In this document: positions 7,784-25,763 of the stretch, in pieces
Numbering within the stretch: position 1 is the first letter of the stretch
How the letters are laid out: each line of letters begins with the position of its first letter
NCBI GenBank assembly: GCA_963802945.1
Contig: CAWDKY010000016.1
Coordinates: 224,001 to 288,000 of the forward strand
Direction: 5' to 3'
DNA: 64,000 nt
From: an uncultured delta proteobacterium
GTDB lineage: Bacteria > Desulfobacterota > RBG-13-43-22
Notes under the pieces: model-generated
Database searches by the model: none
Told to the model about the DNA's origin: nothing
What the model saw: the letters and a program-made list of their open reading frames with translations, nothing else
Program-made: the position numbers and the translations under genes

Positions 7784-7956
7784 AAAAAAATCTAATTACT
7801 CCAACGGATCAATATACTTTTGATAAGAATTAGAGGCTTTGGGTTTTCCTCTCAAGGCCTCTTTCCTTTATCTTTCCTCCTTGAGGATCTGCGTTGTGGC
7901 CTTGATCATGAGTTGGGCTGATTTCCCGTCCTGAATGCTGATGATGGAGTTGCGGA

Positions 7957-8640
7957 ATGAAAACTTGGGCGTATACATTTTTTTTCATCATGGCCTTTTG
8001 GTTAAGCCTGGGATCGTCCTTCTCCGGTGTTCTTTTTCCTTCCATCCGGCTTTCAGAAACCGATTATCATTTTAAAGAAGTGGAAGAGGGGACCATCCTC
8101 TCCCATGATTATTTGGTGAAGAATACCGGCTCGGCAACCCTTCAAATTCTTGATGTCCGCCCGGGCTGAGGCTGCTCGGTGGCCCATTTCGATCGGGCCA
8201 TCCCCCCTGGAGGGGAGGGGAAAGTGACCTTAACCTTAAATTTAAAAGAATATCAAGGACCGGTCTGGAAATCCGCAACGATCTTAAGCAACGATCCTCA
8301 ACAACCTTCTATTGCCGTGAACTTACACGGTACGGTCCGTCCTCATATTGAAATACGGCCGGCCTCTTTTGTTCAATTCAAGGGAGCAGAAAAGGGAGAT
8401 CAGGAAAGGGTGATTGATTTAATAACCACTTCTCAACCTTTTCAAATCCTGAAGATTGAAAATACCTTGGGGGGAAAAATCGCCTATCAGTTGGAAACCA
8501 AGGTCGAAGGCCGGCATTATCGCCTTAAAATCATTAACCGCCAAAGCAAGGAAAACTATTCGGGAATACTCAAGTGTTTCACCAACCATCCCAAAAAGCC
8601 GGAACTTCAGATCCAAATCAGCGGCACTCTTGGCGGATAG
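7957..8640 (+). CDS. DUF1573-type (Ig-like) exported protein with in-frame UGA (8167-8169), candidate selenoprotein, 227 aa
   Basis: ORFs 7957-8169 and 8179-8640 share a frame: ..VKNTGSATLQILDVRPG-UGA-GCSVAHFDRAIPPGGEGKV.., matching the DUF1573 pattern NTG..PL.I..V..sCGCt.....IpPG. Confidence 0.85.
8179..8220 (+). promoter_or_regulatory. Putative bacterial SECIS-like hairpin(s) downstream of the UGA
   Basis: GTGGCCC-ATTTCGATC-GGGCCAT stem begins 10 nt after UGA; a second hairpin CCCC-TGGA-GGGG follows. Confidence 0.55.
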
Positions 8641-8649
8641 AGGTAAGCG

Positions 8650-9867: not shown

Positions 9868-10824
9868 TGACCGTGCCCTTCTCTGAAAAAAAGATTGATG
9901 AGGACAATCCCGCCAGGGCGGGACAGATGGATAATTTTCAACAACCTGTAACGGTATCGGTGGTCATTTGCACCCTCAACCGTGAAGAACCCTTGATCCA
10001 CGTCCTCGAACTTTTAAAGGAGCAGAGCGTCAGCGCCTTTGGAGATCCTGGTTGTCGATCAAAGCCGGGAACACCAATCAACAACCTGGAATTATTTAAG
10101 GGGAAATCAGGACCGCATCCGCTTACTGACCCTTCTTTCCCCATCGACCACTGCCGCCCGCAACCTGGCCCGGAAAGAAGTCAAGGGTGATCTTGTCCTT
10201 TTCTTGGATGATGATGTCCTTTTTTATCCCACTCTGATACAAAATCATCTGGAAAACTATAAGGACCAGAATCCAGGGGCCGTATCCGGCAAGGTCCTTT
10301 ATGACGGAAGTGAGGAAAATGATTTGCCTTGGGCCGCCAGAATCACCTGCAGCGGGAAATACCTACGAAATTTTACCACCAACCAACGATGCCTGGTCCC
10401 TACTCTTTACGGTTGTAACATGTCTATTCGTCGGGACGTCCTTCTGGAAGTCGGAGAATTTGATTTGAATTACTGGGGTAATCTTTTATGGGAAGAAGTG
10501 GACTATGCCCTACAGATCAGAAAACACGGCTATCAAATCCTGTATGATCCCAAGGCGGCCGTCTTTCATGTCATGGCCCAGAAAGGGGGCAGCAGAAACC
10601 CGCCTCCCCGGCAATATCTGGAAAGCACGGTCTTCAACGATTGGTATTTTTTCTTTAAATATATTTCTGTCTGGTTCTGGCCGTTTTTATTGTACCGCCA
10701 GAAAAAAACTTGGCTTCAATATGTTGCGGCCAATAGAGGCAACAGCATCCCCTTGATTAAACAGACGATTCGAGCCTTTCAACTCGCAAAATTAGAGCAG
10801 GGAAAATATTGTCAAAAATTGTAA
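9867..10824 (+). pseudogene. Glycosyltransferase family 2, frameshifted near 10032 (possible assembly error)
   Basis: VSVVICTLNR in one frame; EILVVDQS, AARN, FLDDD, GCNMS, EEVD in the next frame. Confidence 0.8.
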
Positions 10825-10831
10825 AAAAACC

Positions 10832-10860
10832 TTGACTTGTCCTGATTAAGGCATTATAAT
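10832..10860 (+). promoter_or_regulatory. Sigma70 promoter upstream of csp
   Basis: TTGACT (10832-37), 17-bp spacer, TATAAT (10855-60). Confidence 0.85.
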
Positions 10861-10874
10861 CATTTATAATAAAT

Positions 10875-10970
10875 CCGTCATCGACCCAGTAAGGTGTGGG
10901 TGACGGTCGAAGTTGGTGAACAAGTCGACGGGCCATGGCATCGGAGATTGTATCCTCGGTGCTTTTTTTT
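10875..10970 (+). ncRNA. Structured 5' leader or small RNA ending in a terminator-like hairpin plus U8
   Basis: CCGTCA..TGACGG hairpin, TCGA..TCGA hairpin, then GGCATCGG..TCGGTGCT followed by a T-run, between the promoter and the csp RBS. Confidence 0.55.
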
Positions 10971-11020
10971 GGCGAGTCGTATCCCAACTTGAGAAATATT
11001 TCAAGAGGAGGGATACGACT

Positions 11021-11224
11021 ATGCCAGAAGGAAAAGTAAAGTGGTTCAACGAGAACAAGGGTTTTGGCTTTATTGAAGTTGATGGTCAGGATAAGGATGT
11101 ATTTATTCACCATTCAGCGATCAGTATGCAGGGCTTTAGAACCTTGCAAGAAGGCCAGCGTGTAAGCTTTGACATCGAGCAGGGCAAAAAAGGCCCGGCT
11201 GCGGTCAATGTAAAAACCCTGTAG
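11021..11224 (+). CDS. Cold-shock protein (CspA family)
   Basis: [15 protein letters not shown] (RNP1), DVFIHHSAI (RNP2); RBS GAGGAGG before ATG 11021. Confidence 0.97.
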
Positions 11225-11245
11225 AAGCTCGTTAATCCTAAAGAC

Positions 11246-11285
11246 AAGAGGGGGGGTTGAATTTTTTCAACTCCCCCTCTTTTTT
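11246..11285 (+). terminator. Intrinsic terminator after csp
   Basis: AAGAGGGGGGGTTGAA-TTT-TTCAACTCCCCCTCTT followed by a T-run. Confidence 0.85.
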
Positions 11286-11324
11286 CTTGGAGACCGTTGG
11301 TCAGGGGATGAACGGTTCTTCCCT

Positions 11325-11357
11325 ATTCTGAATTCTGACTCCTGGATTCTGAATTCC
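11325..11357. repeat. Heptamer array ATTCTGA/CTCCTGG family
   Basis: attctgaattctgactcctggattctgaattc; same family at 43128-43167, 44208-44290, 48497-48533 and 52603-52782. Confidence 0.8.
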
Positions 11358-11376
11358 CAAGAGTTCAAACATTTTT

Positions 11377-12660
11377 TTAAAGATTTACGTGGTAAATCTC
11401 AAAGGCCTTTTGAGTCAGTTCTTCCCTAACAGAGGGATCCGCAATATCGATCAAGGCCTTCATGCGCTCCCGCACCGTCTTGCCTTTCAAGGCCGCTATA
11501 CCGTATTCCGTGATCACGTAGTCCACATCATTTCTGGACGTGGTTACGGCCGCCCCAATCTTGAGTGTAGGGACTATCCTGGAAACGTCTCTGGCGGTAC
11601 TGGGGAGGGCAATAATGGCCTTTCCCCCATCCGATTGCCTGGCCCCTCTCACAAAGTCAAGCTGCCCGCCCACACCGGCGAATTGCTTTGGACCTAAGGT
11701 GTCAGCGCAGACCTGGCCGAGAAGATCCACTTCTAAAGCGGAGTTTATGGCGACCATCTTTTTATTCTGGGCGATGACATAAGGATTGTTGGTGTAATCC
11801 ACGGTGTGCATTTCAAGCATGGGATTGTCATCTACCCAATCATAAAAGGCCCTTGAACCCATCAGGAAAGTCACGACGATCTTGTCTTTGTGGATCGTCT
11901 TTTTTCGGCCAGTGATTATGCCTTTTTCCACCAGATTTTTCGCGCCGTCGGAAATCATTTCCGAATGAATCCCCAGATCCTTGAATCCGGTGAGGTTAGA
12001 AAGCACCGCGTCGGGAATGCCCCCAATTCCAAGCTGGAGACAGCACCCGTCATCGATCAGTTCAGCGGCGTGTCTGCCAATGCTTTTTTCTACCTCCGTC
12101 AACGCGCTGCTCTTCAACTCGATGATGGATTCGTTGACTTCGACAAAATAATCGATGTCCGAAAGAGGAACAAAGGATTGGCCGTGGGTCCTGGGCATGG
12201 TTGGATTGACTTCGGCCATGACTACTTTTGCCGTTTTGACCGCTTTTTTGGTGTAATCCACCGAAACACCCAGACTGCAAAGGCCATTTTTATCAGGAGG
12301 AGAGACCGTGACTATGGCTACATCGACCGGGAGCACGGACTCAAAAAGAGACGGTATTTCTCTGAACACACAGGGCAGGTAATCCGCCCTGTTTTCCCAA
12401 AGCGCATCTCGGGTTGTGGCCCCGGCGAACAAAGAAATATGGCGAAAGCTGGAAGCCAATTCAGGACGGCAATAGAAGGCCTCCCCCATAGAGACCATAT
12501 GGACAATCTCAACATCTCGGAGTTCCCCTGCTCTATTGACCAGTTTCCTGGGTAATATCCGCGGTTCTCCACAGGCGTGGGAAAAAACAATTCTGTCACC
12601 CGAATGGATCTTTTTCACTGCTTCTTCCGCAGTGCAAACATGTTCCTGGTAATAGCCCAT
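11377..12660 (-). CDS. Acetyl-CoA hydrolase/transferase family (4-hydroxybutyrate CoA-transferase-like)
   Basis: LQLGIGGIPDAV, LGIHSEM, INSALEVDLLGQV, GVGGQLDFVRGA, ITEYGIA. Confidence 0.92.
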   Translation of the reverse strand: MGYYQEHVCTAEEAVKKIHSGDRIVFSHACGEPRILPRKLVNRAGELRDVEIVHMVSMGEAFYCRPELASSFRHISLFAGATTRDALWENRADYLPCVFREIPSLFESVLPVDVAIVTVSPPDKNGLCSLGVSVDYTKKAVKTAKVVMAEVNPTMPRTHGQSFVPLSDIDYFVEVNESIIELKSSALTEVEKSIGRHAAELIDDGCCLQLGIGGIPDAVLSNLTGFKDLGIHSEMISDGAKNLVEKGIITGRKKTIHKDKIVVTFLMGSRAFYDWVDDNPMLEMHTVDYTNNPYVIAQNKKMVAINSALEVDLLGQVCADTLGPKQFAGVGGQLDFVRGARQSDGGKAIIALPSTARDVSRIVPTLKIGAAVTTSRNDVDYVITEYGIAALKGKTVRERMKALIDIADPSVREELTQKAFEIYHVNL

Positions 12661-12965
12661 TATTATCTCCCTATCTCGCAAGATTTTATTTTAACGTTTC
12701 CCTTCGACTTCGTCAAGAGAGGAGCATCACCTCCTTATTCCAATTTTGCCGGGCTGTCCGGATATCTTTTAGTTATAATTTAATTGACACACAGGAATGG
12801 ACTTTCTATACTTTTTTTTCAAAAAATATTTTATCAGAATCCATTGGAGTTAAGAATTAATGAGCCATAGGATCAAGGAGCAGGCGATGATGGTCCTTGG
12901 CAATTATGCTCAATATCGACAGCATCTTTCCTGTTAATAGGAAAAAAACTTATGGAGTATTGATT

Positions 12966-13943
12966 ATGCGATACATCATTTTTGGAGCTGGGGCCATCGG
13001 TGGGGTAATCGGTGCGCGTTTGCACCGGGCAGGCAAAGACGTGGTACTCATTGCCCGCGGCCGGCATCTGGAGGCGATCCGGGAGCATGGACTCCGGCTT
13101 GAAACACCGGAATGGACCGAGACTTACAAGATTAAGGCAGTTTCAACTTCGGCCGAAATTCAGTTTCAAGAGAACGATGTGGTCATCCTGGGTATGAAGT
13201 CGCAGGACACCGCCGCTGCACTTAAGGCCCTTCAAACAGCAGCCGGTGGCCGGATACCGGTGGTCTGCACCCAAAACGGAGTGGCCAACGAACGGATGGC
13301 TCTGCGTCGATTTGAGAACGTCTATGCCATGGTCGTCATGCTCCCGGCCACGCATCTGGATCCGGGTGTGGTGCAGCAGAATTCGGCACCGACACCGGGC
13401 ATCCTGGATGCGGGACGGTATCCTCAGGGGACCGATTCTACGATAGAAGCGGTTTGCGCCGATCTCATGGATGCCGACTTCAGCGCTCGAGTCGATAGTT
13501 CGGTGATGCGGCAGAAATACACCAAACTTCTGATGAACCTGGCTAATGCCTTTCAGGCCATTTGCGGATATGATGCGGACGGCAGGGAGTTTCTTAAAGC
13601 CGCCCGGGAAGAGGCGCTGACCTGCTACCGGGCCGCCGGTATTGACTTCGCCACAACCGAGGAATTTCAAAGCCGCCGCGGAAATATCATTCAGGTGAAG
13701 AATATCGGAGACAAGCGAAGATTTGGCAGCTCATCATGGCAAAGCGCAGCACGAGGTACAGGCACCATCGAGGCGGACTGGCTGAACGGTGAGATCTGCC
13801 TGCTGGGGCGCCTTCACGGTGTACCCACGCCCGTAAATCGATTATTGCAGGCCACCGCAAACCGCGCTGCGCGGGAGAAGCTGACTCCGGGCACGATTAC
13901 GCCCGAGGACCTGCGGCGGCAGCTATGGCATCAAGAAGATTGA
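12966..13943 (+). CDS. Ketopantoate reductase (PanE/ApbA) family protein
   Basis: IFGAGAIGG Rossmann motif, QNGV, KLLMN, SSWQS, EADWLNGEI. Confidence 0.88.
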   Translation: MRYIIFGAGAIGGVIGARLHRAGKDVVLIARGRHLEAIREHGLRLETPEWTETYKIKAVSTSAEIQFQENDVVILGMKSQDTAAALKALQTAAGGRIPVVCTQNGVANERMALRRFENVYAMVVMLPATHLDPGVVQQNSAPTPGILDAGRYPQGTDSTIEAVCADLMDADFSARVDSSVMRQKYTKLLMNLANAFQAICGYDADGREFLKAAREEALTCYRAAGIDFATTEEFQSRRGNIIQVKNIGDKRRFGSSSWQSAARGTGTIEADWLNGEICLLGRLHGVPTPVNRLLQATANRAAREKLTPGTITPEDLRRQLWHQED

Positions 13944-14101
13944 GATAAGATGTTGCATGCCTTAAGACTTTTCTCGTTGACAGAAATAAACTGGTTTTAA
14001 ATTAAATTTAGAGAGAAAGTTTAGGATAAAAAATGAACACCCGTCAACTTGGTGGGATTGATTAAAAAACCTTTTTTCAAATTAAGAGATTACAGGAGGT
14101 C

Positions 14102-14887
14102 ATGATGAAACTGCAGGATTTGTACAGCTTGAAAGGTAAGGTCGCCCTGGTTACCGGAGGCGGAAGAGGGATCGGCAAGTTTATTTCCACAGGATTGGCT
14201 GAGGCCGGCGCCGACCTGATCATTACATCTCGCAAGGAGAGAAACCTGGAGGCAGCGGCCCAGGAATTGTCGAAGTCATTTAATGTCCGGGTCTTGCCCA
14301 TTGCCTGCGATATGGCCAAGGAAGAAAATATTGAAAACATGCTCAAGACGGCTACCGAAAAATTTCCTCGTATTGATATCCTGGTAAACAATGCCGGGGC
14401 AACCTGGGGGGCACCGACCCTTAGCTTTCCTCTTGAGAAGTGGGATTATGTTTTCACGATTAATGTCAGAGGCGTATGGATATTGACCCAAAAAATAGCC
14501 AATCTGATGAAGGACTGGGGTGAGGGAACGATCATTAACCTGGCTTCGACCGCCGGTTTGCGGGGAACAACAGAAGAGGGACATCCGGCCGTCCCTTATA
14601 ATTCAACCAAAGCGGCCATTATCAGCTTGACACAGAATTTGGCCATCAAACTGGCGCCTTACCACATCCGGGTCAACGCTATCGCCCCGGGTTATTTCAA
14701 GACTGACATGATGGCCCATGTGACCAGAAACGAAGCCTTCTATAAGATGGCCACTGCGGGTATCCCACTGCAAAAAGCGGGCGACATCGACGATATGAAG
14801 GGTGTGGCCGTCTTTCTGGCCTCCAACGCCTCCCAGTTTATTACCGGCCAGACCATCGTCGTTGACGGCGGTTCCGTTGCCAAATAG
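14102..14887 (+). CDS. Short-chain dehydrogenase/reductase
   Basis: TGGGRGIG, NNAG, YNSTK catalytic motif, VNAIAPG, VDGG. Confidence 0.93.
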   Translation: MMKLQDLYSLKGKVALVTGGGRGIGKFISTGLAEAGADLIITSRKERNLEAAAQELSKSFNVRVLPIACDMAKEENIENMLKTATEKFPRIDILVNNAGATWGAPTLSFPLEKWDYVFTINVRGVWILTQKIANLMKDWGEGTIINLASTAGLRGTTEEGHPAVPYNSTKAAIISLTQNLAIKLAPYHIRVNAIAPGYFKTDMMAHVTRNEAFYKMATAGIPLQKAGDIDDMKGVAVFLASNASQFITGQTIVVDGGSVAK

Positions 14888-14898
14888 GGCACTAAACC

Positions 14899-16158
14899 TT
14901 GGGCAAAGCTTCACATGAATTTCAGATTTTCGTCAAGCCCATTGGGTCCATCTGCAACCTGGGCTGTCATTACTGCTATTACCTGAAAAAAGAGCATCTC
15001 TACCCAAAAGGCGAGACGTTTCGCATGTCCGACGATATCCTGGAAAGATATGTCGTCCAACACATCGAAGCCTCTCCCGCTCCAACGATCAACTTTTCCT
15101 GGCATGGCGGGGAGCCGACCCTCCTGGGTCTTGATTACTTTCGCCGGATCGTGGCCCTTCAGCGCAAACATAAGCCTAACGGCCGCCGCATAACAAATGG
15201 AATGCAGACCAACGGCACCCTCATCGATGAGGAATGGTGCCGTTTCTTGGCCTCAGAGGACTTTGCCGTTGGCTTGAGTCTGGATGGCCCGCAGGAATTG
15301 CACGATCAACACCGGGTTTTCAAGAGTGGAAACCCCACGCATGAAAAGGTGATGCGCGGATACCATTACCTGCGACAGCACAAGGTTCCGGTTGATCTGC
15401 TGTGCGTGGTACAGGCCCATAACGTTCAACATCCCAGCGCGGTTTATCGGTTCTTTAAACAGATCAAGGCCCAATATATGACTTTTCTGCCTTTGGTTGA
15501 ACTGGATACAAATCAGGCCGGCAGCGTCGGCCCTAATTCTGTCCCGGCTGAATCCTGGGGGGATTTTTTATGCGCCATCTTCGACGAATGGAAGACTGAA
15601 GACATCGAACGAATCAAGGTGCAGATATTTGAGGAGACCGCAAGAACTGCTTTCAATCAAGAACATTCGTTGTGTATTTTCAGAAAAACCTGCGGTGATA
15701 TTTCCGTCATCGAACACAATGGGGATTTTTTTTCGTGCGATCATTTCGTCAACCTGGAACATCGCCTGGGAAATATTCAGGAGACACCCATTGTCGATTT
15801 GTTGGAAAGTCCGGCCCAGAGAGCCTTCGGTCAGGCCAAATGGGAGACACTTCCCAGATACTGCCGGAACTGCGAGGTACTGGAGATGTGTTATGGCGGG
15901 TGCCCTAAGGACCGTATCCTGCGTACGCCGGATGGAGAGGCGGGGTTGAACTACTTGTGTGCGGGCTATAAACGTTTTTTCACCCACTGCCGACCTTTTG
16001 TTGACCAGCTATCTGCTTTGTGGCGTCGGAAATCGGTTGAACGGCAAAGTCCTCCAGAGAAGGTCAAGAGCGTTCAGGCTTACCCCAAAGTTGGCCGCAA
16101 CGATCCTTGTCCGTGCGGCAGCGGCCTAAAGTACAAAAAATGCTGTATGGGCAAGTAA
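14899..16158 (+). CDS. Anaerobic sulfatase maturase (radical SAM/SPASM) with C-terminal SEC-C motif
   Basis: CNLGCHYC, WHGGEP, SLDGP, FSCDHFV, CRNC..C.GGCPK, GRNDPCPCGSGLKYKKCC. Confidence 0.92.
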   Translation: MGKASHEFQIFVKPIGSICNLGCHYCYYLKKEHLYPKGETFRMSDDILERYVVQHIEASPAPTINFSWHGGEPTLLGLDYFRRIVALQRKHKPNGRRITNGMQTNGTLIDEEWCRFLASEDFAVGLSLDGPQELHDQHRVFKSGNPTHEKVMRGYHYLRQHKVPVDLLCVVQAHNVQHPSAVYRFFKQIKAQYMTFLPLVELDTNQAGSVGPNSVPAESWGDFLCAIFDEWKTEDIERIKVQIFEETARTAFNQEHSLCIFRKTCGDISVIEHNGDFFSCDHFVNLEHRLGNIQETPIVDLLESPAQRAFGQAKWETLPRYCRNCEVLEMCYGGCPKDRILRTPDGEAGLNYLCAGYKRFFTHCRPFVDQLSALWRRKSVERQSPPEKVKSVQAYPKVGRNDPCPCGSGLKYKKCCMGK

Positions 16159-16215
16159 ACGCGGCTGGATAGAGTTACGGGTTACGAGTTTAAAAAAAAT
16201 ACTTTTCCCTTAACC

Positions 16216-16250
16216 CCTCGCTCCCCGATGGGGCACCACGAAGGATGAAA
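16216..16250 (+). repeat. Dispersed motif CCTC..CCCC..TGGGGCACCACGAA..ATGAAA (second copy at 48428-48467)
   Basis: tggggcaccacgaaggatgaaa versus tggggcaccacgaaacatgaaa. Confidence 0.65.
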
Positions 16251-16276
16251 GGATTGCTTTACCGTAACAATATGGT

Positions 16277-16399
16277 GTCATTCCGGTCCCGCATCAAGTG
16301 CGGGATAAACTCCAGCCGGAATCCAGGTCAATTAAAGCCTCAAACGCCCTGGATGCCGGATCGGGCCTGCCCCGTATTTGATACGGGGTCCGGCATGAC
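16277..16399. repeat. REP-like double palindrome (GTCATTCCGG..CCGGAATCCAG..CTGGATGCCGG..CCGGCATGAC) with inserted micro-palindromes
   Basis: First 50 bp are the exact reverse complement of 17707-17756; second arm matches 25343-25393 at 47/51. Confidence 0.9.
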
Positions 16400-16468
16400 G
16401 GAGAACAAACCAACCCAATTCTTATGGCGTGGTTATTTTCGTCTAAAAATCGTAACTCGTAACACGTA

Positions 16469-16599
16469 ATGGTCTCGCAAAAAGTCGCCGAAAGTCCATT
16501 TTCGTCATTCCGACGAAAGTCGGAATCCAGGAACTTCAATAGGTTATAAAACCCCTGGACCCCGGTTTTCACCAGGGTGACGACTTTTTGCGAGTCCAT
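16469..16599. mobile_element. MITE-like element, 19-bp terminal inverted repeats enclosing a REP-like dimer
   Basis: ATGGTCTCGCAAAAAGTCG / CGACTTTTTGCGAGTCCAT (18/19); interrupts a CGTAACN heptamer array. Confidence 0.8.
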
Positions 16600-16639
16600 C
16601 ACTCGTAACCCGTAACAGGGGATCTTCAAATATCGTTAG

Positions 16640-17500
16640 TTACTTCTTCAGCTTTTCTTTAAAGAAGGCTATAGTACGCTGCCAGGCCAGTTGGGCCGCC
16701 TCCTTATTATATCGTCCGGGGTTGGTATCGTTGTTAAAAGCATGTTGTGCCCCCGCATACATGTATATCTTGTAGTCGATGGCTGCCTTCTTTAGAGCGG
16801 CTTCATAAGCCGGAATGCCTCCATTGATAAATTGATCGATCCCGGCATAATGGAGGAGCAAAGAAGCCTTGATCTTGGGAACATCTTCAGGAGCAGGCTG
16901 TCTTCCATAGTAGGGTACCACAGCCGATACATCCGAAGAGTGTACGGCCAGTTGGTTGGCCATCCCCCCTCCCCAGCAGAAGCCTACGACTCCAACCTTA
17001 CCGGTCGAAACAGGATTGGTTTTTAGAAATTTTACTGCCGCAAGATAGTTTTGTAAGGTTGAAGGCTCATCCAGTTTTTGAATCAACGCCGGCGCTTTTT
17101 CCTGATCTTCCGGAGTCCCCCCTAAAGGAGTTAAGGCATCAGGGGCGACAGCCAGAAAACCCTCCAAAGCGATACGCCTGGCAACGTCTTCGATATGAGG
17201 AACCAGGCCCCTGTTTTCATGGATGACGAGCACGCCAGGCTGCTTTTCCTTGCCTTTCGGCCTCGCCAAATAGGCCCGAATGTCGCCTGTCGCTCCCGGA
17301 TATTTTATAGTTTCCACGAACAGACGAGGTTCATCCTTGGGAACGATCTCGGCTTGAGCGAAATTTTTTTCCAATAAAGGCAGCAGAGTATAAGCAGCGG
17401 CAGTCCCACCGGCCAGAACAGCCAACCTCTTGATAAATTCACGGCGATCAAATAATTCATGGGTGTAGTCGTCGATCAATTCAATGATTTTTTGATCCAT
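16640..17500 (-). CDS. Dienelactone hydrolase family (YghX-like) with twin-arginine-like N-terminus
   Basis: DRREFIKRL, IHENRGL, GFCWGG, HAFNND. Confidence 0.92.
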   Translation of the reverse strand: MDQKIIELIDDYTHELFDRREFIKRLAVLAGGTAAAYTLLPLLEKNFAQAEIVPKDEPRLFVETIKYPGATGDIRAYLARPKGKEKQPGVLVIHENRGLVPHIEDVARRIALEGFLAVAPDALTPLGGTPEDQEKAPALIQKLDEPSTLQNYLAAVKFLKTNPVSTGKVGVVGFCWGGGMANQLAVHSSDVSAVVPYYGRQPAPEDVPKIKASLLLHYAGIDQFINGGIPAYEAALKKAAIDYKIYMYAGAQHAFNNDTNPGRYNKEAAQLAWQRTIAFFKEKLKK

Positions 17501-17637
17501 CTTTTTCTCCTTTCTTTCAGGGATAATACAAATTATTTAACTTTAGCGACAAAAAAGCAAGTTCAATCAAAATTTGTTGCTTGCTTCCCTCCTCTATTTT
17601 TTATATACTTATATCATTCAAAAACCACTCATTAATT

Positions 17638-17781
17638 GAGGTTCTTTCAAATCTCTTAAATTTCGTCACACCGGCGAAAGCCGGTGTCCAGAATGCATTT
17701 AAAAGACTGGATTCCGGCTGGAGTTTATCCCGCACTTGATGCGGGACCGGAATGACATCTCTGGACTTTTGCAAGAGCCTC
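17638..17781. mobile_element. MITE-like element, 14-bp terminal inverted repeats enclosing a REP-like dimer
   Basis: GAGGTTCTTTCAAA / TTTGCAAGAGCCTC (12/14); inside are GTCACACCGGCGAAAGCCGGTGTCCAG ... CTGGATTCCGG..CCGGAATGAC. Confidence 0.7.
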
Positions 17782-17804
17782 TATTTGTAAGGAGGAATGA
17801 GACC

Positions 17805-18545
17805 ATGTACGAAGGGATGATAGCCGAGACAGTTGGTTTTTATGGGTGTGACAATGATCCAATAGAAGGATATCTGGCCCGTCCGCTGGGACCGGGGCCT
17901 TTCCCAGGCGTTATTGTTGTTCATCATCTACCGGGTTGGGATGAAGCAACTAAAGAAATAACCCGTAAACTGGCCTATCACGGCTATGTAGGTTTTTCCC
18001 CACACCTCCACCATCGGGAAGGCCCAGGTACCCCCGATGAACTCTTGGCCAAGGTTTGGGCTGCCGGCATGGTCCCAGACAAACGCTGTATGGGCGATAT
18101 CGATGCAGCCATTCGATATCTGGAGACCCAGTCCTATTACAGCGGCAAGGTCGGCATCATCGGGTATTGTTCCGGTGGCCGGCAGGTTTACTTGGCGGCT
18201 TGCACCATCAAACGCATCAATGCCGCCGTGGATTGTTATGGGGGTCGGGTGGTGGCCAAGCCCGAGGAACTTACCAAAGGTTGGACGGTTGCCCCCATTG
18301 ACCTGACCAAGGATCTGGCCTGTCCCTTGCTGGGTCTGTTTGGCGCCGAAGATCAAAACCCTTCACCTGAGCATGTGAAGCGCATGGAGGAAGAACTCAA
18401 ACGATACAACAAGACCTATGAATTTCACACCTACCCAAACGCCGGTCATGGTTTCTTTTCAGTAGACCGGCCAAGTTACCGGGTAGAGGCTGCCGTTGAC
18501 GGCTGGAAAAAGATCTTTACCTGGTATGAAAAATATTTAAAATGA
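17805..18545 (+). CDS. Dienelactone hydrolase family, cytoplasmic
   Basis: GIIGYCSGG, GLFGAED, AGHGF; RBS AGGAGG before ATG 17805. Confidence 0.92.
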   Translation: MYEGMIAETVGFYGCDNDPIEGYLARPLGPGPFPGVIVVHHLPGWDEATKEITRKLAYHGYVGFSPHLHHREGPGTPDELLAKVWAAGMVPDKRCMGDIDAAIRYLETQSYYSGKVGIIGYCSGGRQVYLAACTIKRINAAVDCYGGRVVAKPEELTKGWTVAPIDLTKDLACPLLGLFGAEDQNPSPEHVKRMEEELKRYNKTYEFHTYPNAGHGFFSVDRPSYRVEAAVDGWKKIFTWYEKYLK

Positions 18546-18736
18546 AAATGGTTATCTAATGAATAAAGTTGAATAGGGGGGAACGCTCTTCTTACCTATG
18601 TGGTTTAGGGATCGGTTAAATCAACCGGCTTCCCCCCAATTCGTCTGAATAGCCAACCCAATTTCTTTTCTTCAAGGCGCAACATAAATAAGTTCTTGCC
18701 CAAACTGCTCAAGGATTAGAGTAAAATATTTTCTTC

Positions 18737-18775
18737 TTGACAATGTAGTCACATAAACATAAAATGTGTCTACAT
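18737..18775 (+). promoter_or_regulatory. Sigma70 promoter with paired operator for the TA locus
   Basis: TTGACA-17-TAAAAT; ATGTAGTCACAT and ATGTGTCTACAT are inverted copies (11/12) overlapping the promoter. Confidence 0.8.
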
Positions 18776-18797
18776 ATTTCCCAGATGGAGAAGAATC

Positions 18798-19088
18798 ATG
18801 AAAAAGGCCGGCGTTCGTGAATTGAGGCTTCATTTCAGTCAATACCTTCAAGAAGTAAAGCAGGGGGAACCATTATTAATTACAGAGCGGGGTGAGGGGG
18901 TTGCCCAAATCCTTCCACTCCTTCCCAATGAAAGCAAACAGGGCAGAAAGATCCAAGCCGCTTTGCGGCAATTGGCTCAAAAAGGTCTTATTCACCTTCC
19001 CCCAAGGCAGAAATTCGCCGGTCCTCCCAAACGGATCAAGATTCCAGGCAAGCCGTTTTCAGAAGCGGTCATAGAGGATCGCAGATGA
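18798..19088 (+). CDS. Phd/YefM family antitoxin
   Basis: GVRELRLHFSQYLQEVKQGEPLLITERG; ends SEAVIEDRR; ATGA overlap with the toxin. Confidence 0.9.
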   Translation: MKKAGVRELRLHFSQYLQEVKQGEPLLITERGEGVAQILPLLPNESKQGRKIQAALRQLAQKGLIHLPPRQKFAGPPKRIKIPGKPFSEAVIEDRR

Positions 19089-19510
19089 TTCTCTACTGTG
19101 ATACTTCCGCTTTGATTAAACGTTATGTCGAAGAAGCAGGAAGCGATCAAGTGGACCGACTTTTTGAGGAAGGGTCGTCCGTGGTCACTTCAACAGTTGC
19201 TTTCGCTGAAATAATGGCCGTTTTTAGACGAAAATATCGAGAAGGCATACTTACCAGAACCGGCTATTCTAAATCGGTCTTGGAATTTAAAAAAGAGTAT
19301 TCCAAACTTATTTTGGTTTCTATAACCCCGGAGTTAAATCAACTTATTGAAAACCTTGTTGTTAAACATCCCTTAAGAGGTTTTGACGCCATCCATCTCG
19401 CTTCGGCCCTGCTGGTTCAAAAAGAAGGCTCTATGAATGTCAATTTCGCCTGCTTTGATCGTGTCTTAAATAAGGCAGCGTCCTCAGAAGGTCTCCTAAT
19501 ATCTTTTTAA
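19085..19510 (+). CDS. vapC: VapC-type PIN toxin
   Basis: YCDTSALIKRY, E, LRGFDAIHLASA, CFD. Confidence 0.9.
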   Translation: MILYCDTSALIKRYVEEAGSDQVDRLFEEGSSVVTSTVAFAEIMAVFRRKYREGILTRTGYSKSVLEFKKEYSKLILVSITPELNQLIENLVVKHPLRGFDAIHLASALLVQKEGSMNVNFACFDRVLNKAASSEGLLISF

Positions 19511-19727
19511 AGGCAAATAAATAAGTATGCTGTCCCCGGATTAAAGATCCTCAAAATGCAGGACAATTTTTTAACAGTAAAATTTTGTTCGGCCCTTCTT
19601 AAACCAGTTTTTTGATCATTTCCTACCGCTGATCCAGCCGACGAGAAGGCCGGCTATTGTATATTCCACCGTGATCCCTAAAAACAAGGTAAGGGCTATA
19701 TAATTTGGATAGTTTATTGGATCGACT

Positions 19728-20615
19728 TTACAGTAGGCCTGCTGCGGTCAGGGTATTCTTGACGAGTACGGCCTGTTCTGGTGTGAGCGGCGGAAGAGGC
19801 GGTTTCACATCGACCCGTATCGGATGGCCCAGCAGACGCAGGGCCTCCTTCATCAGGGCATGGGGTGCGGGCGCTCCGGCGATAAGGGGCAGCAATTGAT
19901 TGATCTCGGCCTGCAGGGGAGCCGCCTTCTCAAAATCGTTGGCCTTGAGGGCCTCGTAAAGACGAACCGCCGTCCGTGGTGCCACGTTCGGCAATGGACA
20001 GATGGCCCCGCAGGCGCCAACCCCCATGGTCTTGGTCAGGTTGACACAAATCCCGGTGAAGACGCTGAAGTCTTCATCGGCAGCATCGACCAGGCCCTTC
20101 ACCTCACTGGTTTTAAATATGGTTTCCTTGGCTCCGACCACGTTGTCGATCTTGGCTATCCTGGCAATTTGTTCGGGGGTAAGGACCAGATGACTGTGGC
20201 TGGGGAAATTGTAGAAAAGAACCGGAAGGTCCACCTGGTTACAGACGGTCTCGTAATGCTGATAAACAGAGTCTTCGTCCAGAGGATAGAAGACCGGCAA
20301 AGCCAAAAGTAAACCGTCGGCCCCGGCATCCTTGGCATAGCGGGCCATTTTGAGGGCGGCATCGGTCCCTCTCTCGTTAATGCCTACGATAACCGGCAAG
20401 GCACCGGCATTTGTTTCGATTACAGTATCAATAACCGATTTCTGGAGGTCGTGAGTGAGGTAAGGACACTCGCCATTACTTCCGAGGACGACCAGACCGT
20501 GCACCCCTGATTTGATCTGGTAGTTGGTCATCTTGGCCATAGCCGCCCGGTCAATTCCACCGGACTCATCATAGGCCGTTACCATTACGGTAAAAATCCC
20601 CTGAAACTTTTTCAC
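19728..20615 (-). CDS. Dihydrodipicolinate synthase family aldolase/lyase
   Basis: GSNGE, FYNFP, GAKE Schiff-base Lys; divergent from true DapA (GTTGE). Confidence 0.88.
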   Translation of the reverse strand: MKKFQGIFTVMVTAYDESGGIDRAAMAKMTNYQIKSGVHGLVVLGSNGECPYLTHDLQKSVIDTVIETNAGALPVIVGINERGTDAALKMARYAKDAGADGLLLALPVFYPLDEDSVYQHYETVCNQVDLPVLFYNFPSHSHLVLTPEQIARIAKIDNVVGAKETIFKTSEVKGLVDAADEDFSVFTGICVNLTKTMGVGACGAICPLPNVAPRTAVRLYEALKANDFEKAAPLQAEINQLLPLIAGAPAPHALMKEALRLLGHPIRVDVKPPLPPLTPEQAVLVKNTLTAAGLL

Positions 20616-21062: not shown

Positions 21063-21665
21063 TTATTTAAGATATTGCTCAATGATCTCACCTTTCCTAA
21101 AACAGTCAAGAGAGTGGTCGTTTACCATACCGGTAGCCTGCATATGCGCGTAACATATGGTAGAACCTAAAAATTTAAAACCCCTCTGCTTCAAGTCTTT
21201 GCTCAAGGCGTCCGACTCTTTGCTTGTTGCCGGGTAATCCGATAATTTCCTTATTTTATTGATTTTCGGTTTACCGCCGACAAACCCCCATATATATTTT
21301 GAAAAACTTCCATAGGCTGCTTGAACTTCAAGAAATTTACGGGCATTATTTACCGTTGCTTCAATTTTCAATCTATTTCTAATTATCCCCGGATTCTGTA
21401 AAAGTTTTTCAATCTTTGCCCGATTAAATCTGGAAATCTTTTCCGGTTCGAAATTTTCAAAGACCCTTCGGTAATTCTCCCTTTTTTTTAAAACCGTGAA
21501 CCAACTCAAACCTGCTTGGGCGGATTCCAAGGTCAGAAATTCAAAGATCAACCGGTCATCATAAACCGGCACACCCCATTCCTTATCGTGATATTCCACA
21601 TAATCGACTTTACTCAAATCGACCCAAGGACAACGGCAAATATTATTTTTCCTATTTTTTTTCAT
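21063..21665 (-). CDS. tag: DNA-3-methyladenine glycosylase I
   Basis: RCPW, YHDKEWG, LESAQAGLSW, IIRNRLKI, GMVNDH..C. Confidence 0.96.
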   Translation of the reverse strand: MKKNRKNNICRCPWVDLSKVDYVEYHDKEWGVPVYDDRLIFEFLTLESAQAGLSWFTVLKKRENYRRVFENFEPEKISRFNRAKIEKLLQNPGIIRNRLKIEATVNNARKFLEVQAAYGSFSKYIWGFVGGKPKINKIRKLSDYPATSKESDALSKDLKQRGFKFLGSTICYAHMQATGMVNDHSLDCFRKGEIIEQYLK

Positions 21666-21682
21666 TTGTCAACGAACTCATC

Positions 21683-21755
21683 TTCCAATGCGGCGTTGAC
21701 CCGTGGCACGCCGCTTGCGGGGGCCGAAGGCCCCATGCAAGCATGATCGGGGTCA
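21683..21755 (-). other. Truncated or degenerate attC-like site abutting the transposase IR
   Basis: TTCCAAT-GCGGCGTTGACCCG ... CGGGGTC with internal hairpin GCTTGC..GCAAGC; the second arm is replaced by GGGTCAGGTCT. Confidence 0.45.
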
Positions 21756-22683
21756 GGTCTATTTTTTCAACATTATTTATTTTACCTGTGTCCGTATAAT
21801 ACGGCTTATTGAAGAAAAATGTAATCCTAAATACGCAGAAACTTGCTTCTGGGTGTAACCGTGTCTCTCCACTGCCTTCAATATCCGTTTATTTCTTGCT
21901 TCCTTTTTTCGAATCAATTCGGGGATAATATTTTTTCCAGACTGGGTCTGTTAATAAAACGTTGGCTTTTTGATATGTCGGGAATTGCCTCTTTCCCCTT
22001 CAGATGATCTTTTAAACGTTCCACAAAAGAATCCTCCCCTAGGATGCTCTGAGCTCTCAAATCCTTCCAAATAGATTCCGATCTTATTCCAGCCCTAACA
22101 AACTGGCGATAGATTCCTTCCGCCTTCATTCTTTTGGGTGAAAGTTGCCCTAAGATCCCATCAACGGTAAGGCAGGAGGGCTTACTTCGCTGCCCTGCTG
22201 TAGCCGCATAGCTGCTCCATTTCCACTGGTTCGGGTTTTTTATGAGTTTTGCCCTTACCGGATTCAGTACGATATAACGGGAAACTTCAAGAAGATGGCT
22301 ATCTTTTTGCACCAGAATACCCTTGAATCTCCCCTGGAATAAATGACCAACGGTTCCATGTCGCTTATTGAACAACTGGGTAAACACCCCATTTAATTGT
22401 CTCATCCCAATGGAAAGGTTTCCATCAGGTGTTTCGATAAGCAAATGATAATGATTATTCATCAGACAATAGGCATGGCAGAGCCAGTTATAGCGCGTGT
22501 TAACCTGGTAAAGGATTTTGAGGAAATCCTCACGGTCGTGATCATCCTTAAAAATCTCATTTTTGTTATTTCCTCGGCTGGTCACATGATAAAAAGCCCC
22601 GGGAAATACTATGCGTAGAGGACGTGCCATGAGTATCCTATATCATTACTATATCTTCAATGTCAAGAAAATAGACCTGACCC
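21750..22683 (-). mobile_element. IR-bounded element carrying a Y1 HUH (RAYT-type) transposase
   Basis: Perfect 16-bp inverted repeats GGGTCAGGTCTATTTT (21750-65) / AAAATAGACCTGACCC (22668-83), 22/25 when extended. Confidence 0.8.
21777..22630 (-). CDS. Y1 tyrosine transposase (RAYT-like) with C-terminal HTH; frameshift near 21918
   Basis: MARPLR, YHVTSRGN, LMNNHYHLL (HUH), GHLFQGRF, YIVLNPVRA, WSSY; the shifted frame continues ..RHGYTQKQVSAYLGLHFSSISRII.. to TAA at 21777. Confidence 0.88.
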
Positions 22684-22704
22684 TAATTCCCGCGCCGCAG
22701 GCGG

Positions 22705-22764
22705 CGCCAACGGCGGGCATCACCGGAGTGCGTCAGCGTGTCCGTGTGCATGCCATCGTTGGGC
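22705..22764 (-). other. attC site (60 bp)
   Basis: Minus strand GCCCAAC-GATG-GCATGCAC..GTGATGC-CCGCC-GTTGGCG: R'' and R' cores, L'' has one extra base relative to L'; starts 5 nt after the gene stop. Confidence 0.85.
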
Positions 22765-22769
22765 TTATT

Positions 22770-23636
22770 TTAATCATCAGATTTTGATAGTTGTCTGATC
22801 ACTTGCTTAAGCTCTAGGATCTCAATTGATTGTGGGCAACCAGACCAGTTATGACGCCAGCAGACTATAATGTCACAGCCCTCAGGTGAATGTCCATGGT
22901 CCTTAAAGTTACGGCTTTCATATTCAAATTCAATCCTGACACGCTGCCATTTCCCAGCAGCAATTTGCTGTTTAGCTTCGCAGTCCGGGAAACCCGCTTG
23001 AACAGACTCAACATAATAACCAAGTTCTTTTGCGACCATTCCAAAGAGAAATATCACTCCATTTTCATTTATTGGCTCATGCCTTAACCCACGAAAGTCA
23101 ATTGGATTACCATAGGTTGGGCTACTTTCTAACTTTGTATGATGTGGAATAGACCGGCTGTGTGTAGGTTCATCACTTTCGCGTTCTATTTCACTCTGTA
23201 TAGATAAGGTTGATGATTGAGATGGTGGCAGAGGCATGAGTGCAATAACATCAGCCCATTCAGGTTTGCTCATGGCGAACTTTCGAAAATAATCCGGGAT
23301 GGAGGACCATGGCCCAAAGTGACTTGCAAAAGTGTTAACTCCGAAATTTCCTTCACGCCTATATTGATGTCTAGTTGGAATTTCTCTGTTCTTACGGACT
23401 AATTCTCCCCAATCTTGGAGTAGTTCAATATCTTCAATACGGATGTTTGTATCATCTGATTGTATCCCGGCTGCTTTTAGTGCAGCTCTCCAACTTTTGA
23501 AGTGAGTAAGTACTTTATATTCACTTATTCCAGAGTGTGAAATAAACTTTGAGCGCGACAATGGTTGCCCAAGTTCTTGAGCAGCTTTACGAATTGCATC
23601 GAGTATTTCATCTCGCGTTGGCATATTTTCTGTCAT
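22770..23636 (-). CDS. Cassette gene: homing-endonuclease-associated repeats plus putative PD-(D/E)XK nuclease domain
   Basis: Two repeats ending HFKSWRAALKAAG / HFGPWS; C-domain FPDCEA..RIEFEYESRNFKDHGH..CDIIVCW. Confidence 0.65.
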   Translation of the reverse strand: MTENMPTRDEILDAIRKAAQELGQPLSRSKFISHSGISEYKVLTHFKSWRAALKAAGIQSDDTNIRIEDIELLQDWGELVRKNREIPTRHQYRREGNFGVNTFASHFGPWSSIPDYFRKFAMSKPEWADVIALMPLPPSQSSTLSIQSEIERESDEPTHSRSIPHHTKLESSPTYGNPIDFRGLRHEPINENGVIFLFGMVAKELGYYVESVQAGFPDCEAKQQIAAGKWQRVRIEFEYESRNFKDHGHSPEGCDIIVCWRHNWSGCPQSIEILELKQVIRQLSKSDD

Positions 23637-23655
23637 TTTAATTTATTCTCCATGA

Positions 23656-23693
23656 GCCCAACATGGGCTTCAGCGGGAAGCCCATGGTTATAG
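23656..23693 (-). other. Shortened attC site (38 bp)
   Basis: Minus strand CTATAAC-CATGGGCTTCCCGCTGAAGCCCAT-GTTGGGC; R'' overlaps the TAA of the upstream gene. Confidence 0.7.
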
Positions 23694-24320
23694 CTTCTTT
23701 ACGTCAGGGAAACACCCTGCCATCCTCCCCATTATGACGATTAAGTAGAGATACGATTGAAAACAAACAAAATCGCATAGCTCCGGTTCGTTGAGAACCT
23801 TACCAACAGAATAACCAAACCCACCGGCAGGGAGACTCACCAGATTGTAAGCTGAGCCCATAGGGTCGCCATGGGTCAAGGAATTGAAGGTGTTGCAGAT
23901 GTCCTGAGCTTGTTTTGTGTCCACCTCTTTACTCATGGTGGTTAGCATTGTGGCAAGACTGGGACGTTCCTTATGCCGCCAACCATTCTGCCACAAAGAG
24001 ACTTCTTGAGGTTTTTCATGCAGGTACGAAATGATGGCGGCTCGCTCGATGAGGGGGCGCATGAGAACGGCTGCGGCAAATAGATAACCTTGGCGGACCA
24101 GTTCCCGAATGCTCAAGGCCAAATTAATACCCTGCGGGATAAGCTGGCAAGCCGCTTTCTGCAAGTCATTCATCTCGTTTTTATGCGTATAGGCTGCAAT
24201 CTCAGCATTTGCTTCCAAGCAAGACAGAATAACCTGGTCGAAGTGAAAGACAGACTCTCTCCCAAGATACGGTTCGTTGTCCGGAGTGAATACAGGTGCT
24301 TTTTTCGATGCCTCATTCAT
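23688..24320 (-). CDS. Cassette gene, DUF5677-like helical protein
   Basis: LVRQGYLFAAAVLMRPLIER and NSLTHGDP motifs; ATG 24320 lies 20 nt inside the GTTATAGC core site. Confidence 0.6.
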   Translation of the reverse strand: MNEASKKAPVFTPDNEPYLGRESVFHFDQVILSCLEANAEIAAYTHKNEMNDLQKAACQLIPQGINLALSIRELVRQGYLFAAAVLMRPLIERAAIISYLHEKPQEVSLWQNGWRHKERPSLATMLTTMSKEVDTKQAQDICNTFNSLTHGDPMGSAYNLVSLPAGGFGYSVGKVLNEPELCDFVCFQSYLYLIVIMGRMAGCFPDVKKL

Positions 24321-24332
24321 CTTCTTTTTCCT

Positions 24333-24372
24333 GCTATAACAAATTATTGAACAGTTTTCTGGATAATAACAT
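24333..24372 (-). other. Putative attI-like site at the head of the cassette array
   Basis: Minus strand GTTATTATCCAGAAAACTGTTCAATAATTT-GTTATAGC: core site with no attC palindrome, preceded by direct GTT motifs in AT-rich DNA. Confidence 0.45.
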
Positions 24373-24511
24373 GAAGTTTCAGTATATTCAATAAAATAGA
24401 AAAAATATCTAAACGTAACCACATAAATTTATTATACTTATACGCTTGTATAACATACCTTTCTTGCTGTTTTCCAGTTTCTGTTTAACTTCCTTCAAGA
24501 ACTTTGAGTTT

Positions 24512-24847
24512 TTATATTTTTGAACGGATGAGTCTATTTAACAGTATATCTTCAATGTTTGGTCGTGAATCCAAAACAGAAAGCACATAAACATTCTTTT
24601 CAGATATTCTATAAAGGATTCTCCAGGGTGGAACAATCAATTCCCGATACTGTAGGATACCATGATCCTGCAACTCCGGAACGATGCGGCCTCTTTCCGG
24701 AAAGTTATAAAGGCTGGAGGCTTTTTGTTTTAGGTTGTTGAATATCCTCACGGCTTCCGATAGGCTGTCATCCGCGATATATTCGATAATACTTTTTAAA
24801 TCATCCTCGGCAATATTGGACCAGACAACTCCGTATTTGGGCTTCAT
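24512..24847 (-). CDS. RelE/ParE family toxin
   Basis: VVWSNIAEDDLKSIIEYIA, FPERGRIVPEL, YRELIVPPWRILYRI. Confidence 0.9.
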   Translation of the reverse strand: MKPKYGVVWSNIAEDDLKSIIEYIADDSLSEAVRIFNNLKQKASSLYNFPERGRIVPELQDHGILQYRELIVPPWRILYRISEKNVYVLSVLDSRPNIEDILLNRLIRSKI

Positions 24848-25125
24848 TTCATCTTTTCTTTCAGAAGATGATCCATATTTTTAAAAACTTCCTGCTGAGA
24901 TTTTACTTTCCCTTCCCGTATTTCCTGTTCACCCTGGGATATCAATTTTAATATTCCGATAGCATTCCGCATATCCTCATAACTTTTAGGATCTTGCAGA
25001 ATGGCTTTGGGCTCTCCGTTTTGAGTAATGATAACCGGACGATGGGTTTCATTGATTTGTTTTAACAGATCGGATGCTCTTGCCTTAAGGTAGGTTACTG
25101 GTTTTATGTCCTGGAAAATATTCAT
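24844..25125 (-). CDS. Phd/YefM family antitoxin
   Basis: DIKPVTYLK..RPVIITQNGEPKAIL; ATGA overlap; upstream TTGACA and CGGTCT-N18-AGACCG palindrome. Confidence 0.9.
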   Translation of the reverse strand: MNIFQDIKPVTYLKARASDLLKQINETHRPVIITQNGEPKAILQDPKSYEDMRNAIGILKLISQGEQEIREGKVKSQQEVFKNMDHLLKEKMK

Positions 25126-25342
25126 AAGATCACCTCCGGTCTATTTATAGTACCAAATTAAGACCGATGTCAAGTCGGAATTTTAATCTTACTCATCCAC
25201 AATAATAAATAGCCTTGAGTATTCTTGGGGTCAAGGGTCAGGCATAAAAGTATTTGAAGTCTTAGCGAAGGATTCAGATTTCGGTCAGTTTTTTTAGCGC
25301 AGAAATAAACCCTAAACTATACCTTGGGTTTGACTGTTCTCC

Positions 25343-25575
25343 GCCATACCGGACCCCGTATCAAGTACGGGGCAGGCCCGATCCGGAATCCAGTCTTTTC
25401 AACCTGGATTCCCGCTTTCGAGACTGTGTCGTAATAGCGGACAGCGCCATCAAAGCCGTCATGCCGGCGAAAGCCGGCATCCAGAACTTAATGAAAATAC
25501 TGGATTCCGTGTCGCGTTTCGATTGCACGGAATGACAAAAATATAATTGCGACACAGTCTCTTCGCGGGAATGAC
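25343..25575. repeat. REP-like double palindrome interrupted by a MITE
   Basis: Removing 25420-25564 restores CTGGATTCCCGCTTTCGCGGGAATGAC. Confidence 0.85.
25420..25561. mobile_element. 142-bp MITE with 16-bp TIRs and a TTC target duplication, containing a REP-like dimer
   Basis: GAGACTGTGTCGTAAT / ATTGCGACACAGTCTC (15/16); TTC at 25417-19 and 25562-64. Confidence 0.88.
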
Positions 25576-25763
25576 GACACTAGAACTATTATAACCCTAC
25601 TATTGCAACACGACACTAGCAGTATTTAGAGTAATGGAGAAGGTTTTGGATTTTGGTCAGATTAGTTGGGTTCGTGATTAAAAATTAAATTCCGGATTTG
25701 AAAACAAGCAGCTAAAATCTTTTAGGCATGAATGTCTTTTGACGATCGTTTCATTGACACGAT

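Follow-up and report, generated by a model that had tools for sequence, protein, structure and literature searches.

How do two genes that carry the marks of integron cassettes come to stand among housekeeping genes with no integron integrase beside them? The question is raised by a stretch of 64,000 nucleotides from the chromosome of an uncultured Thermodesulfobacteriota-like bacterium (contig CAWDKY010000016.1, positions 224,001 to 288,000, here called the window), in which two consecutive minus-strand genes, A and B, each end in a hairpin that resembles an attC site (site A and site B, respectively). Our answer is that A and B are probably two integron gene cassettes that recombination by the integron integrase, IntI, linked with one another and with the chromosome at G/TT, and that entered at an ordinary chromosomal site (an attG-type origin, which we prefer over the alternatives discussed below). 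The locus is a two-cassette, integrase-less mini-array at the border between an attC cluster without an integron-integrase (CALIN) and a single attC site lacking an integron-integrase (SALIN), a kind of arrangement that has already been described.

An earlier note on this DNA, made from the letters alone, had proposed four boundary motifs on the minus strand, and we located all of them: GTTATAGC from the G at 24340, GCTATAAC at 23694-23687, GTTGGGCT from the G at 23662 and AGCCCAAC at 22765-22758, after the last of which comes a 60-nt site with GTTGGCG (G at 22711) at its end. As claimed there, the start of each unit is the reverse complement of its own R'', at eight of eight positions both for GTTATAGC/GCTATAAC in unit A and for GTTGGGCT/AGCCCAAC in unit B. 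The core sites are inverted (CTATAAC ... GTTGGGC in site A, GCCCAAC ... GTTGGCG in site B), and the two units are chained through a single G/TT, the R' of site A being at the same time the start of unit B. Pairing of bare 8-mers is not rare, since 25 of the 897 8-mers ending in AAC on the minus strand of the window, and 24 of the 922 on the plus strand, have their reverse complement 400-1300 nt upstream, a background of about 2.7%. What lies above chance is the placement: each R'' is the foot of a hairpin and lies at or overlaps the stop codon of an open reading frame (ORF), and the complement of R'' precedes the ATG by only 19 nt (A) or 25 nt (B), which bears out the co-orientation and very short leaders that the note had described. 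G/TT junction signatures of this type are presented in the literature as the trace that IntI recombination leaves behind (PMC4889954; bioRxiv 10.1101/2022.09.11.507474).

The junctions of cassette A are supported independently by its relatives in other genomes. A genome scan with an alignment of A yielded 80 loci, drawn from a wide diversity of bacteria and from two archaeal metagenome-assembled genomes (MAGs), with a best match of 91% and with the window's own genome outside the set. When positions 25200-22500 were compared with these loci by blastn, homology was confined to cassette A, running from 24342 to 23687 in locus L002 (84% identity), from 24342 to 23674 in L001 (83%) and from 24339 to 23710 in L003 (81%), so that the similarity opens at the G/TT junction and closes at the AAC of R''. 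An attC hit of the covariance model introduced below abuts the 3' end of the homologue in 11 of the 80 loci, and the complementarity between R'' and cassette start is kept in eight of these 11; the note had asked whether homologues of the cassette genes are ever flanked by attC, and for A they are. In L002 the copy of cassette A lies between two nearly identical 66-nt attC sites (60.4 and 55.7 bits), and in an Omnitrophota MAG (L006) the DUF5677 homologue is the first cassette beside intI in a complete integron (8517-20298), whose integrase matches TIGR02249 with 412 bits (cut-off 265) and in which the homologue is followed by 12 attC hits, 11 of them at E 4e-7 or better. Two of the loci, L001 and L005, hold solitary cassette copies among housekeeping genes (miaB; glnD and fabF). 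One DUF5677 cassette family thus travels across many bacterial phyla, with more distant archaeal homologues, and its members are found in a complete integron, in arrays without an integrase and as solitary copies. The synteny comparison found no other window gene from the island around A and B recurring in the 80 loci.

For the attC sites themselves, we built covariance models solely from sites of the fetched loci and none from the window: R1 from seven hand-curated sites of four loci, R2 from 16 R1 hits, and R3 from 29 R2 hits of 12 loci. In the R3 training alignment the share of paired cells is 88.6%, compared to 68.6% in shuffles, with none of 500 shuffles reaching the observed score; compensatory changes occur in 10 of the 12 L-box pairs, and pairing is often missing at the outer R-box positions, as chimeric R' sites would lead one to expect. 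Searched against the 80 loci (E ≤ 10), R3 gave 41 hits in 16 loci, every one on the strand of the DUF5677 gene, while the opposite strand held nothing at or above 14.5 bits in 1.285 Mb (default filters). A filter-free scan of both strands of the whole window (128 kb) listed four matches, and the sole one with E below 1 was site B, at exactly 22764-22705 on the minus strand (19.1 bits, E 0.029); the other three scored 13.0, 11.9 (site B read on its opposite strand) and 11.9 bits, with E from 1.3 to 2.5. E-values of these home-made models are rough, to about a factor of five. The 60-bp attC that had been proposed after cassette B is hence accepted by the covariance model, while site A, at 9.4 bits, fails it. 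The note had named rejection of the sites by the covariance model, together with homologues never flanked by attC, as what would refute its reading, and on both counts the outcome favours that reading. Two home-made scanners for hairpins and core sites were set aside, the first of which missed both sites (overly strict requirements on stem and minimum size) and the second of which returned mostly terminators and palindromes on both strands.

The predicted structure of site B follows the standard attC plan. Fold and model alignment together place R'' (GCCCAAC), a spacer of 4-5 nt that is unpaired with its counterpart, an L box, a short terminal stem-loop and R' (GTTGGCG); the L box GCAT(G)CAC(A)CGGA pairs with TCCGGTGATGC, and the bulged bases lie on the R''-L'' arm. 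Site A consists of R'' (CTATAAC), one extra C, a 9-bp stem (ATGGGCTTC/GAAGCCCAT), the loop CCGCT and R' (GTTGGGC), and its stem can be counted as 9-10 bp with one bulged base, the L stem being only 5 bp and the loop 5 nt. When R- and L-box features were compared directly, site B had the full set, whereas site A had an R box, one bulge and a stem but no unpaired spacer. Folding of the bottom strands, also suggested in the note, showed both to be more stable than shuffles, with -17.4 kcal/mol and z -2.7 for site B (z -2.7 to -2.9 against shuffles) and -11.7 kcal/mol and z -4.7 for site A (z -4.3 to -4.7). The two sites are 891 nt apart.

Natural attC sites usually measure about 57 nt and up, and site A is well below this. 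Copies of cassette A elsewhere carry sites of 65-77 nt after the same R'', and an internal deletion is the simplest reading of the shortness of site A. Alternatively, site A could be no dead remnant but a functional minimal attC, a reading that we regard as improbable; if an integron integrase did recombine site A, the needs of a minimal attC would have to be redefined, with no unpaired central spacer and a single extrahelical base. As a natural test case for the minimal attC, this 38-nt site is the only point of the locus with some wider value. We also considered, and rejected, the idea that different attC interiors on one cassette body betray a special exchange mechanism: third-codon-position identity between cassette A and its closest copies is only 52-56%, at which unconstrained sequence would be unrecognisable anyway, so that differing attC interiors need no special mechanism.

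No tyrosine recombinase accompanies the array, in agreement with the earlier note. A Pfam scan of 61 of the window's 64 non-overlapping ORFs (70 aa or longer) gave no Phage_integrase match, and one of the remaining three had no NCBIfam family; tblastn of the L006 IntI against the six frames of the 64 kb gave a best E of 0.13, leaving an integrase-free stretch around the array of at least 21 kb on one side and 39 kb on the other. That best match (7836-7973, 29% over 59 aa) lies 16 kb from the array beside tRNA-Met (7707-7783), where a 71-aa ORF has no family match, and it probably has no meaning, or is at most what remains of a tRNA-associated integrase. Where a complete integron would have intI with attI, the DNA upstream of cassette A holds Phd-ParE and the liv operon. 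Left of cassette A (24341-24520), neither an att-like structure nor a model match was found, with a fold of 188 nt at z 0.0 to 0.6 and best scores of 4-5 bits, and an attC between parE and cassette A, which we had considered as a candidate, was seen neither by fold nor by model.

To the right, the array ends with site B. A third cassette would need an R'' complementary to TTGGCGCC, the bases that follow site B, and the required GCGCCAAC has no minus-strand match; a GTCAAC...GTTGAC pair before tag, tried as a cassette end, has no stem and no match; and the R3 scan gave no match near the RayT-like gene or tag. Since there is no R'' for TTGGCGCC, no model match and no attC downstream, the array comprises two cassettes. 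The extent of 21063-24372 given previously for it overshoots by about 1.6 kb and takes in the RayT-like gene and tag, which lie outside the array by these same tests. The features of the locus are collected in Table 1.

Table 1. Features of the cassette locus and its immediate neighbours (window coordinates).
Feature	Position	Strand	Basis and remarks
Phd-ParE toxin-antitoxin pair	24512..25125	-	Pfam and NCBIfam; context directly upstream of cassette A, cassette status not shown
AT-rich spacer, 170 nt	between Phd-ParE and the DUF5677 gene		placed by minus-strand order
Promoter-like sigma-70 match	24363..24391	-	TTGAAT, 17 nt, TATTAT, with TG (consensus scan)
Left junction G/TTATAGC	24333..24340	-	G 24340 belongs to the flank; cassette A starts from TT 24339
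Cassette A, 678 bp	23662..24339	-	TT 24339 to G 23662; one ORF
ORF A, 210 aa, DUF5677	23688..24320	-	Pfam PF18928, E 2.4e-6; ATG 24320; 19-nt leader with AGGA; stop TAA inside R''
Site A, 38-nt shortened attC-like hairpin	23656..23693	-	fold and weak model scores
Cassette B, 951 bp	22711..23661	-	TT 23661 to G 22711 (G of the R' of site B); one ORF
ORF B, 288 aa, two HNH-associated repeats and a conserved C-terminal domain	22770..23636	-	Pfam PF18780, E 4e-17, two stretches; 25-nt leader with GGAG
Site B, canonical 60-nt attC	22705..22764	-	covariance model R3 and fold
RayT-like Y1 transposase gene	21914-22642 (element 21750..22683 with inverted repeats)	-	NCBIfam NF047646, 85.4 bits; no cassette features in the tests made
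tag (3-methyladenine glycosylase I)	21063..21665	-	TIGR00624, 237 bits; no cassette features in the tests made

By what route, then, did the cassettes arrive? On balance we prefer insertion at a GTT outside any att site over the decay of an integron. Each unit would have been a promoterless ORF with its own attC, and a circle carrying both A and B, or two circles in turn, would have been inserted by IntI acting in trans at an ordinary chromosomal GTT (an attG-type or secondary site) between the Phd-ParE module and the RayT-like element, where the sequence before insertion would have read ...AATAATTTG joined straight to TTGGCGCC.... At present the left side has no partner site, the attC of A is missing its spacer, the greater part of its L box and its terminal structure, and A and B would therefore behave as a mostly stranded unit in which site B is the one intact attC. 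If IntI were supplied, site B could still recombine, and for B to leave by itself the 38-nt remnant would have to be functional. An attG-type origin is favoured by the lack of any structure or model match left of A, the lack of an IntI remnant, the housekeeping flanks, the small size of the array and the solitary copies in L001 and L005; small CALINs and SALINs are proposed to arise by such non-att insertion at 5'-GWT-3' sites (bioRxiv 10.1101/2022.09.11.507474). Transcription of A and B could start from the promoter-like match, which has an extended -10 element and stops 23 nt short of the left junction, and read-through from parE would be the other source of any expression. This match is a lead only, promoter matches not being enriched in the region (14 against 10.2 ± 2.9 in shuffles).

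Several observations weigh against this account. Site A, with 38 nt and neither an unpaired spacer nor a terminal structure, scores 11.0 (R1), 8.6 (R2) and 9.4 bits (R3), the best of its own kilobase, not significant window-wide and missing from the window-wide R3 list (E ≤ 10), so that only one of the two sites is independently validated; its shortening, moreover, shows decay, which counts against an attG-type origin. The E-value of site B is itself modest, comes from a home-made and roughly calibrated model and was seen only with filters off: R1 and R2 with default Infernal filters gave no match in the window, where R3 was run filter-free only, and R1, which was too narrow, scored site B at 6.5 bits, below significance. 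No homologue of cassette B was found in the 80 loci, and a tblastn search for homologues of B against plasmids returned nine partial haloarchaeal matches with 36-39% coverage. Finally, L001 and L005 share 16 identical nucleotides (9985-10000 in each) directly left of G/TTATAGC, which resemble the attI-proximal bases of L006 at 10 of 13 positions and hint that the solitary copies may descend from integron platforms. They may even carry a short piece of attI, a weaker reading than that of site A as a minimal attC; if it were true, first-position cassettes could leave integrons with part of the platform.

The most substantial alternative is one that we hold possible yet less probable than insertion at a non-att GTT: A and B could be the remnant of a complete or larger chromosomal integron that lost intI and attI, and perhaps further cassettes, by deletion or rearrangement, for example on the arrival of Phd-ParE or of the RayT-like element. 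The visible shortening of site A would fit such a history, as would the RayT-like element only 27 nt past site B, the repeat-rich stretch at 25126-25763, the short IntI-like fragments upstream of the array in locus L032 and the likeness of the 16 nt common to L001 and L005 to a platform, and loss of intI is listed among the origins of CALINs (PMC4889954). Yet the 64 kb contain no IntI remnant (best E 0.13, 16 kb away), there is no attI-like or attC-like structure left of A, and the left flank of the window matches those of L001 and L006 only weakly. Also counted against decay is the report that 95% of CALINs are without a recognisable intI pseudogene nearby (PMC4889954). The earlier note had spoken of a decaying or trans-serviced integron; decay survives as one of two live origins, and non-att (attG) insertion fits at least as well.

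Servicing in trans, in which an intI elsewhere in the genome still shuffles the cassettes of an active satellite array, overlaps with both origins, and we think it unlikely. The intact look of site B and the frequent co-occurrence of CALINs and integrons in one genome (PMC4889954) would allow it, but nothing in the window speaks for it, the left partner site is missing and site A is shortened. It remains to ask whether integrons need be invoked at all, since the hairpins could be terminators or palindromes of the repetitive extragenic palindromic (REP) type belonging to the RayT-like transposase, and the 8-mer matches could be chance. A RayT-like gene with GC-rich palindromes on both sides does adjoin the array, and the 8-mer background is 2.7%; against this, the core of site B occurs once in the 64 kb at up to three mismatches and the 25-nt inverted repeat only at the RayT gene, which is not the organisation of a REPtron, no T run comes after either hairpin, homology in unrelated genomes that have no RayT homologue confirms where cassette A begins and ends, and the model match is strand-specific (19.1 against 11.9 bits). 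We consider this explanation very improbable and close to refuted.

How far does the array agree with known systems? It shares with CALINs, as these are described (PMC4889954), co-oriented cassettes with attC sites, the lack of an intI within reach and the small size, 83% of CALINs having fewer than six sites. A CALIN is defined there by at least two clustered attC sites, whereas here one of two sites passes the attC model and the other is a 38-nt remnant, so that two sites are counted only by eye; of the CALIN label applied in the note, the missing integrase stands, and the pair of attC sites stands only if the 38-nt remnant (9.4 bits) is counted. With the SALINs and attG insertions of Loot et al. 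(bioRxiv 10.1101/2022.09.11.507474) the locus has in common an isolated cassette unit among housekeeping genes, a plain GTT at the left junction that fits 5'-GWT-3' and an expression that would depend on a resident promoter; it differs in having two ORFs rather than one, and the insertion event would here have to be deduced from its products. The complete sedentary chromosomal integron of L006 offers a homologue with 79% protein and 73% nucleotide identity, the same R'' (CTATAAC), a cassette start that differs at one base (G/TTATACC against G/TTATAGC in the window) and the same attC architecture of R box, spacer and L box with bulges, but it has intI and 12 attC hits where the window has neither integrase nor attI.

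In mobile integrons, loss or erosion of an internal attC fuses two cassettes, and a cassette inserted at a secondary site has no partner on its left with which it could be excised. Known cases of such fused or secondary-site cassettes are resistance cassettes on plasmids and transposons, whereas here the genes are of unknown function and lie in an environmental chromosome. The locus adds a documented example of cassettes stranded among housekeeping genes, with no integrase nearby, in an uncultured Thermodesulfobacteriota-like genome, and it does not change the understanding of integrons, small CALINs, SALINs and non-att insertion having been described before.

The proteins encoded by the two cassettes are widespread. 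Protein A has 1243 database homologues of up to 94% identity in many phyla, its ATG agreeing with the start of homologues, and protein B has 2898 of up to 88% identity, likewise in many phyla. Residues 130-288 of ORF B have no Pfam match, NCBIfam contains no family for either protein, PADLOC matched none of seven proteins, and in the protein atlas A and B fall only into unnamed or DUF clusters. AlphaFold models reached a predicted local distance difference test (pLDDT) score of 83 for A and 67 for B, and neither model matched a PDB fold at E 0.001 or better. The model of A is all-helical, with weak leads to HEPN domains (Pfam HEPN_Apea at E 0.012, a sacsin HEPN domain at a probability of 0.72), and that of B predicts two HNH-associated helical repeats, a disordered linker and a conserved alpha/beta C-terminal domain, which may bear a weak likeness to restriction-endonuclease-like folds (AspBHI, E 0.046). 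The titles and abstract openings returned by a full-text search of the literature on DUF5677 drew no link to integrons. Archaeal MAG homologues of DUF5677 in L027 (Methanoregula, 57% identity) and L036 (Nitrosopumilaceae, 53%) show that the family crosses domains, and neither locus has an attC hit. In L006, the spacer between intI and the cassettes contains a near-consensus promoter.

Past site B, the RayT-like element starts 27 nt beyond R'; a pair of 25-nt inverted repeats, 88% complementary, encloses its gene, which also has GC-rich palindromes to either side. A C-terminal, helix-turn-helix-like part is found in another frame (21777-21950), and the gene is frameshifted or contains an assembly indel.

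The window as a whole is a chromosomal stretch with housekeeping genes, among which Pfam identifies tsaD, serS, ccsA and resB (cytochrome c assembly), ftsK, RNase J, lolA and lgt; an Rfam scan found only two tRNAs in it and no match in the cassette region. Read along the minus strand from 25.1 to 19.7 kb, the order is Phd-ParE, the AT-rich spacer, the DUF5677 gene, the HNH-associated-repeat gene, the RayT-like gene, tag, an FRP-like gene and a gene of the dihydrodipicolinate synthase (DHDPS) family. Two type II toxin-antitoxin pairs, Phd-PIN (18798-19510, plus strand) and Phd-ParE (24512-25125, minus strand), bracket a 5-kb stretch that contains the cassettes, the RayT-like gene, tag, the FRP-like gene and the DHDPS-family gene and has a GC content of about 40-45%, compared to 47% for the window. 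Between livF and Phd-ParE (25126-25763), 640 non-coding nucleotides hold inverted and direct repeats nested in one another (arms of 23 nt at a distance of 90 nt, arms of 16 nt at a distance of 110 nt, and direct repeats of 17-18 nt) and resemble at least one miniature repeat element. Farther away, ftsK (48547-50725) is represented by two overlapping ORFs in different frames, one with the four-transmembrane and alpha domains (49442-50725) and the other with the motor and gamma domains (48547-49584), a split that reflects either a frameshift or an assembly error.

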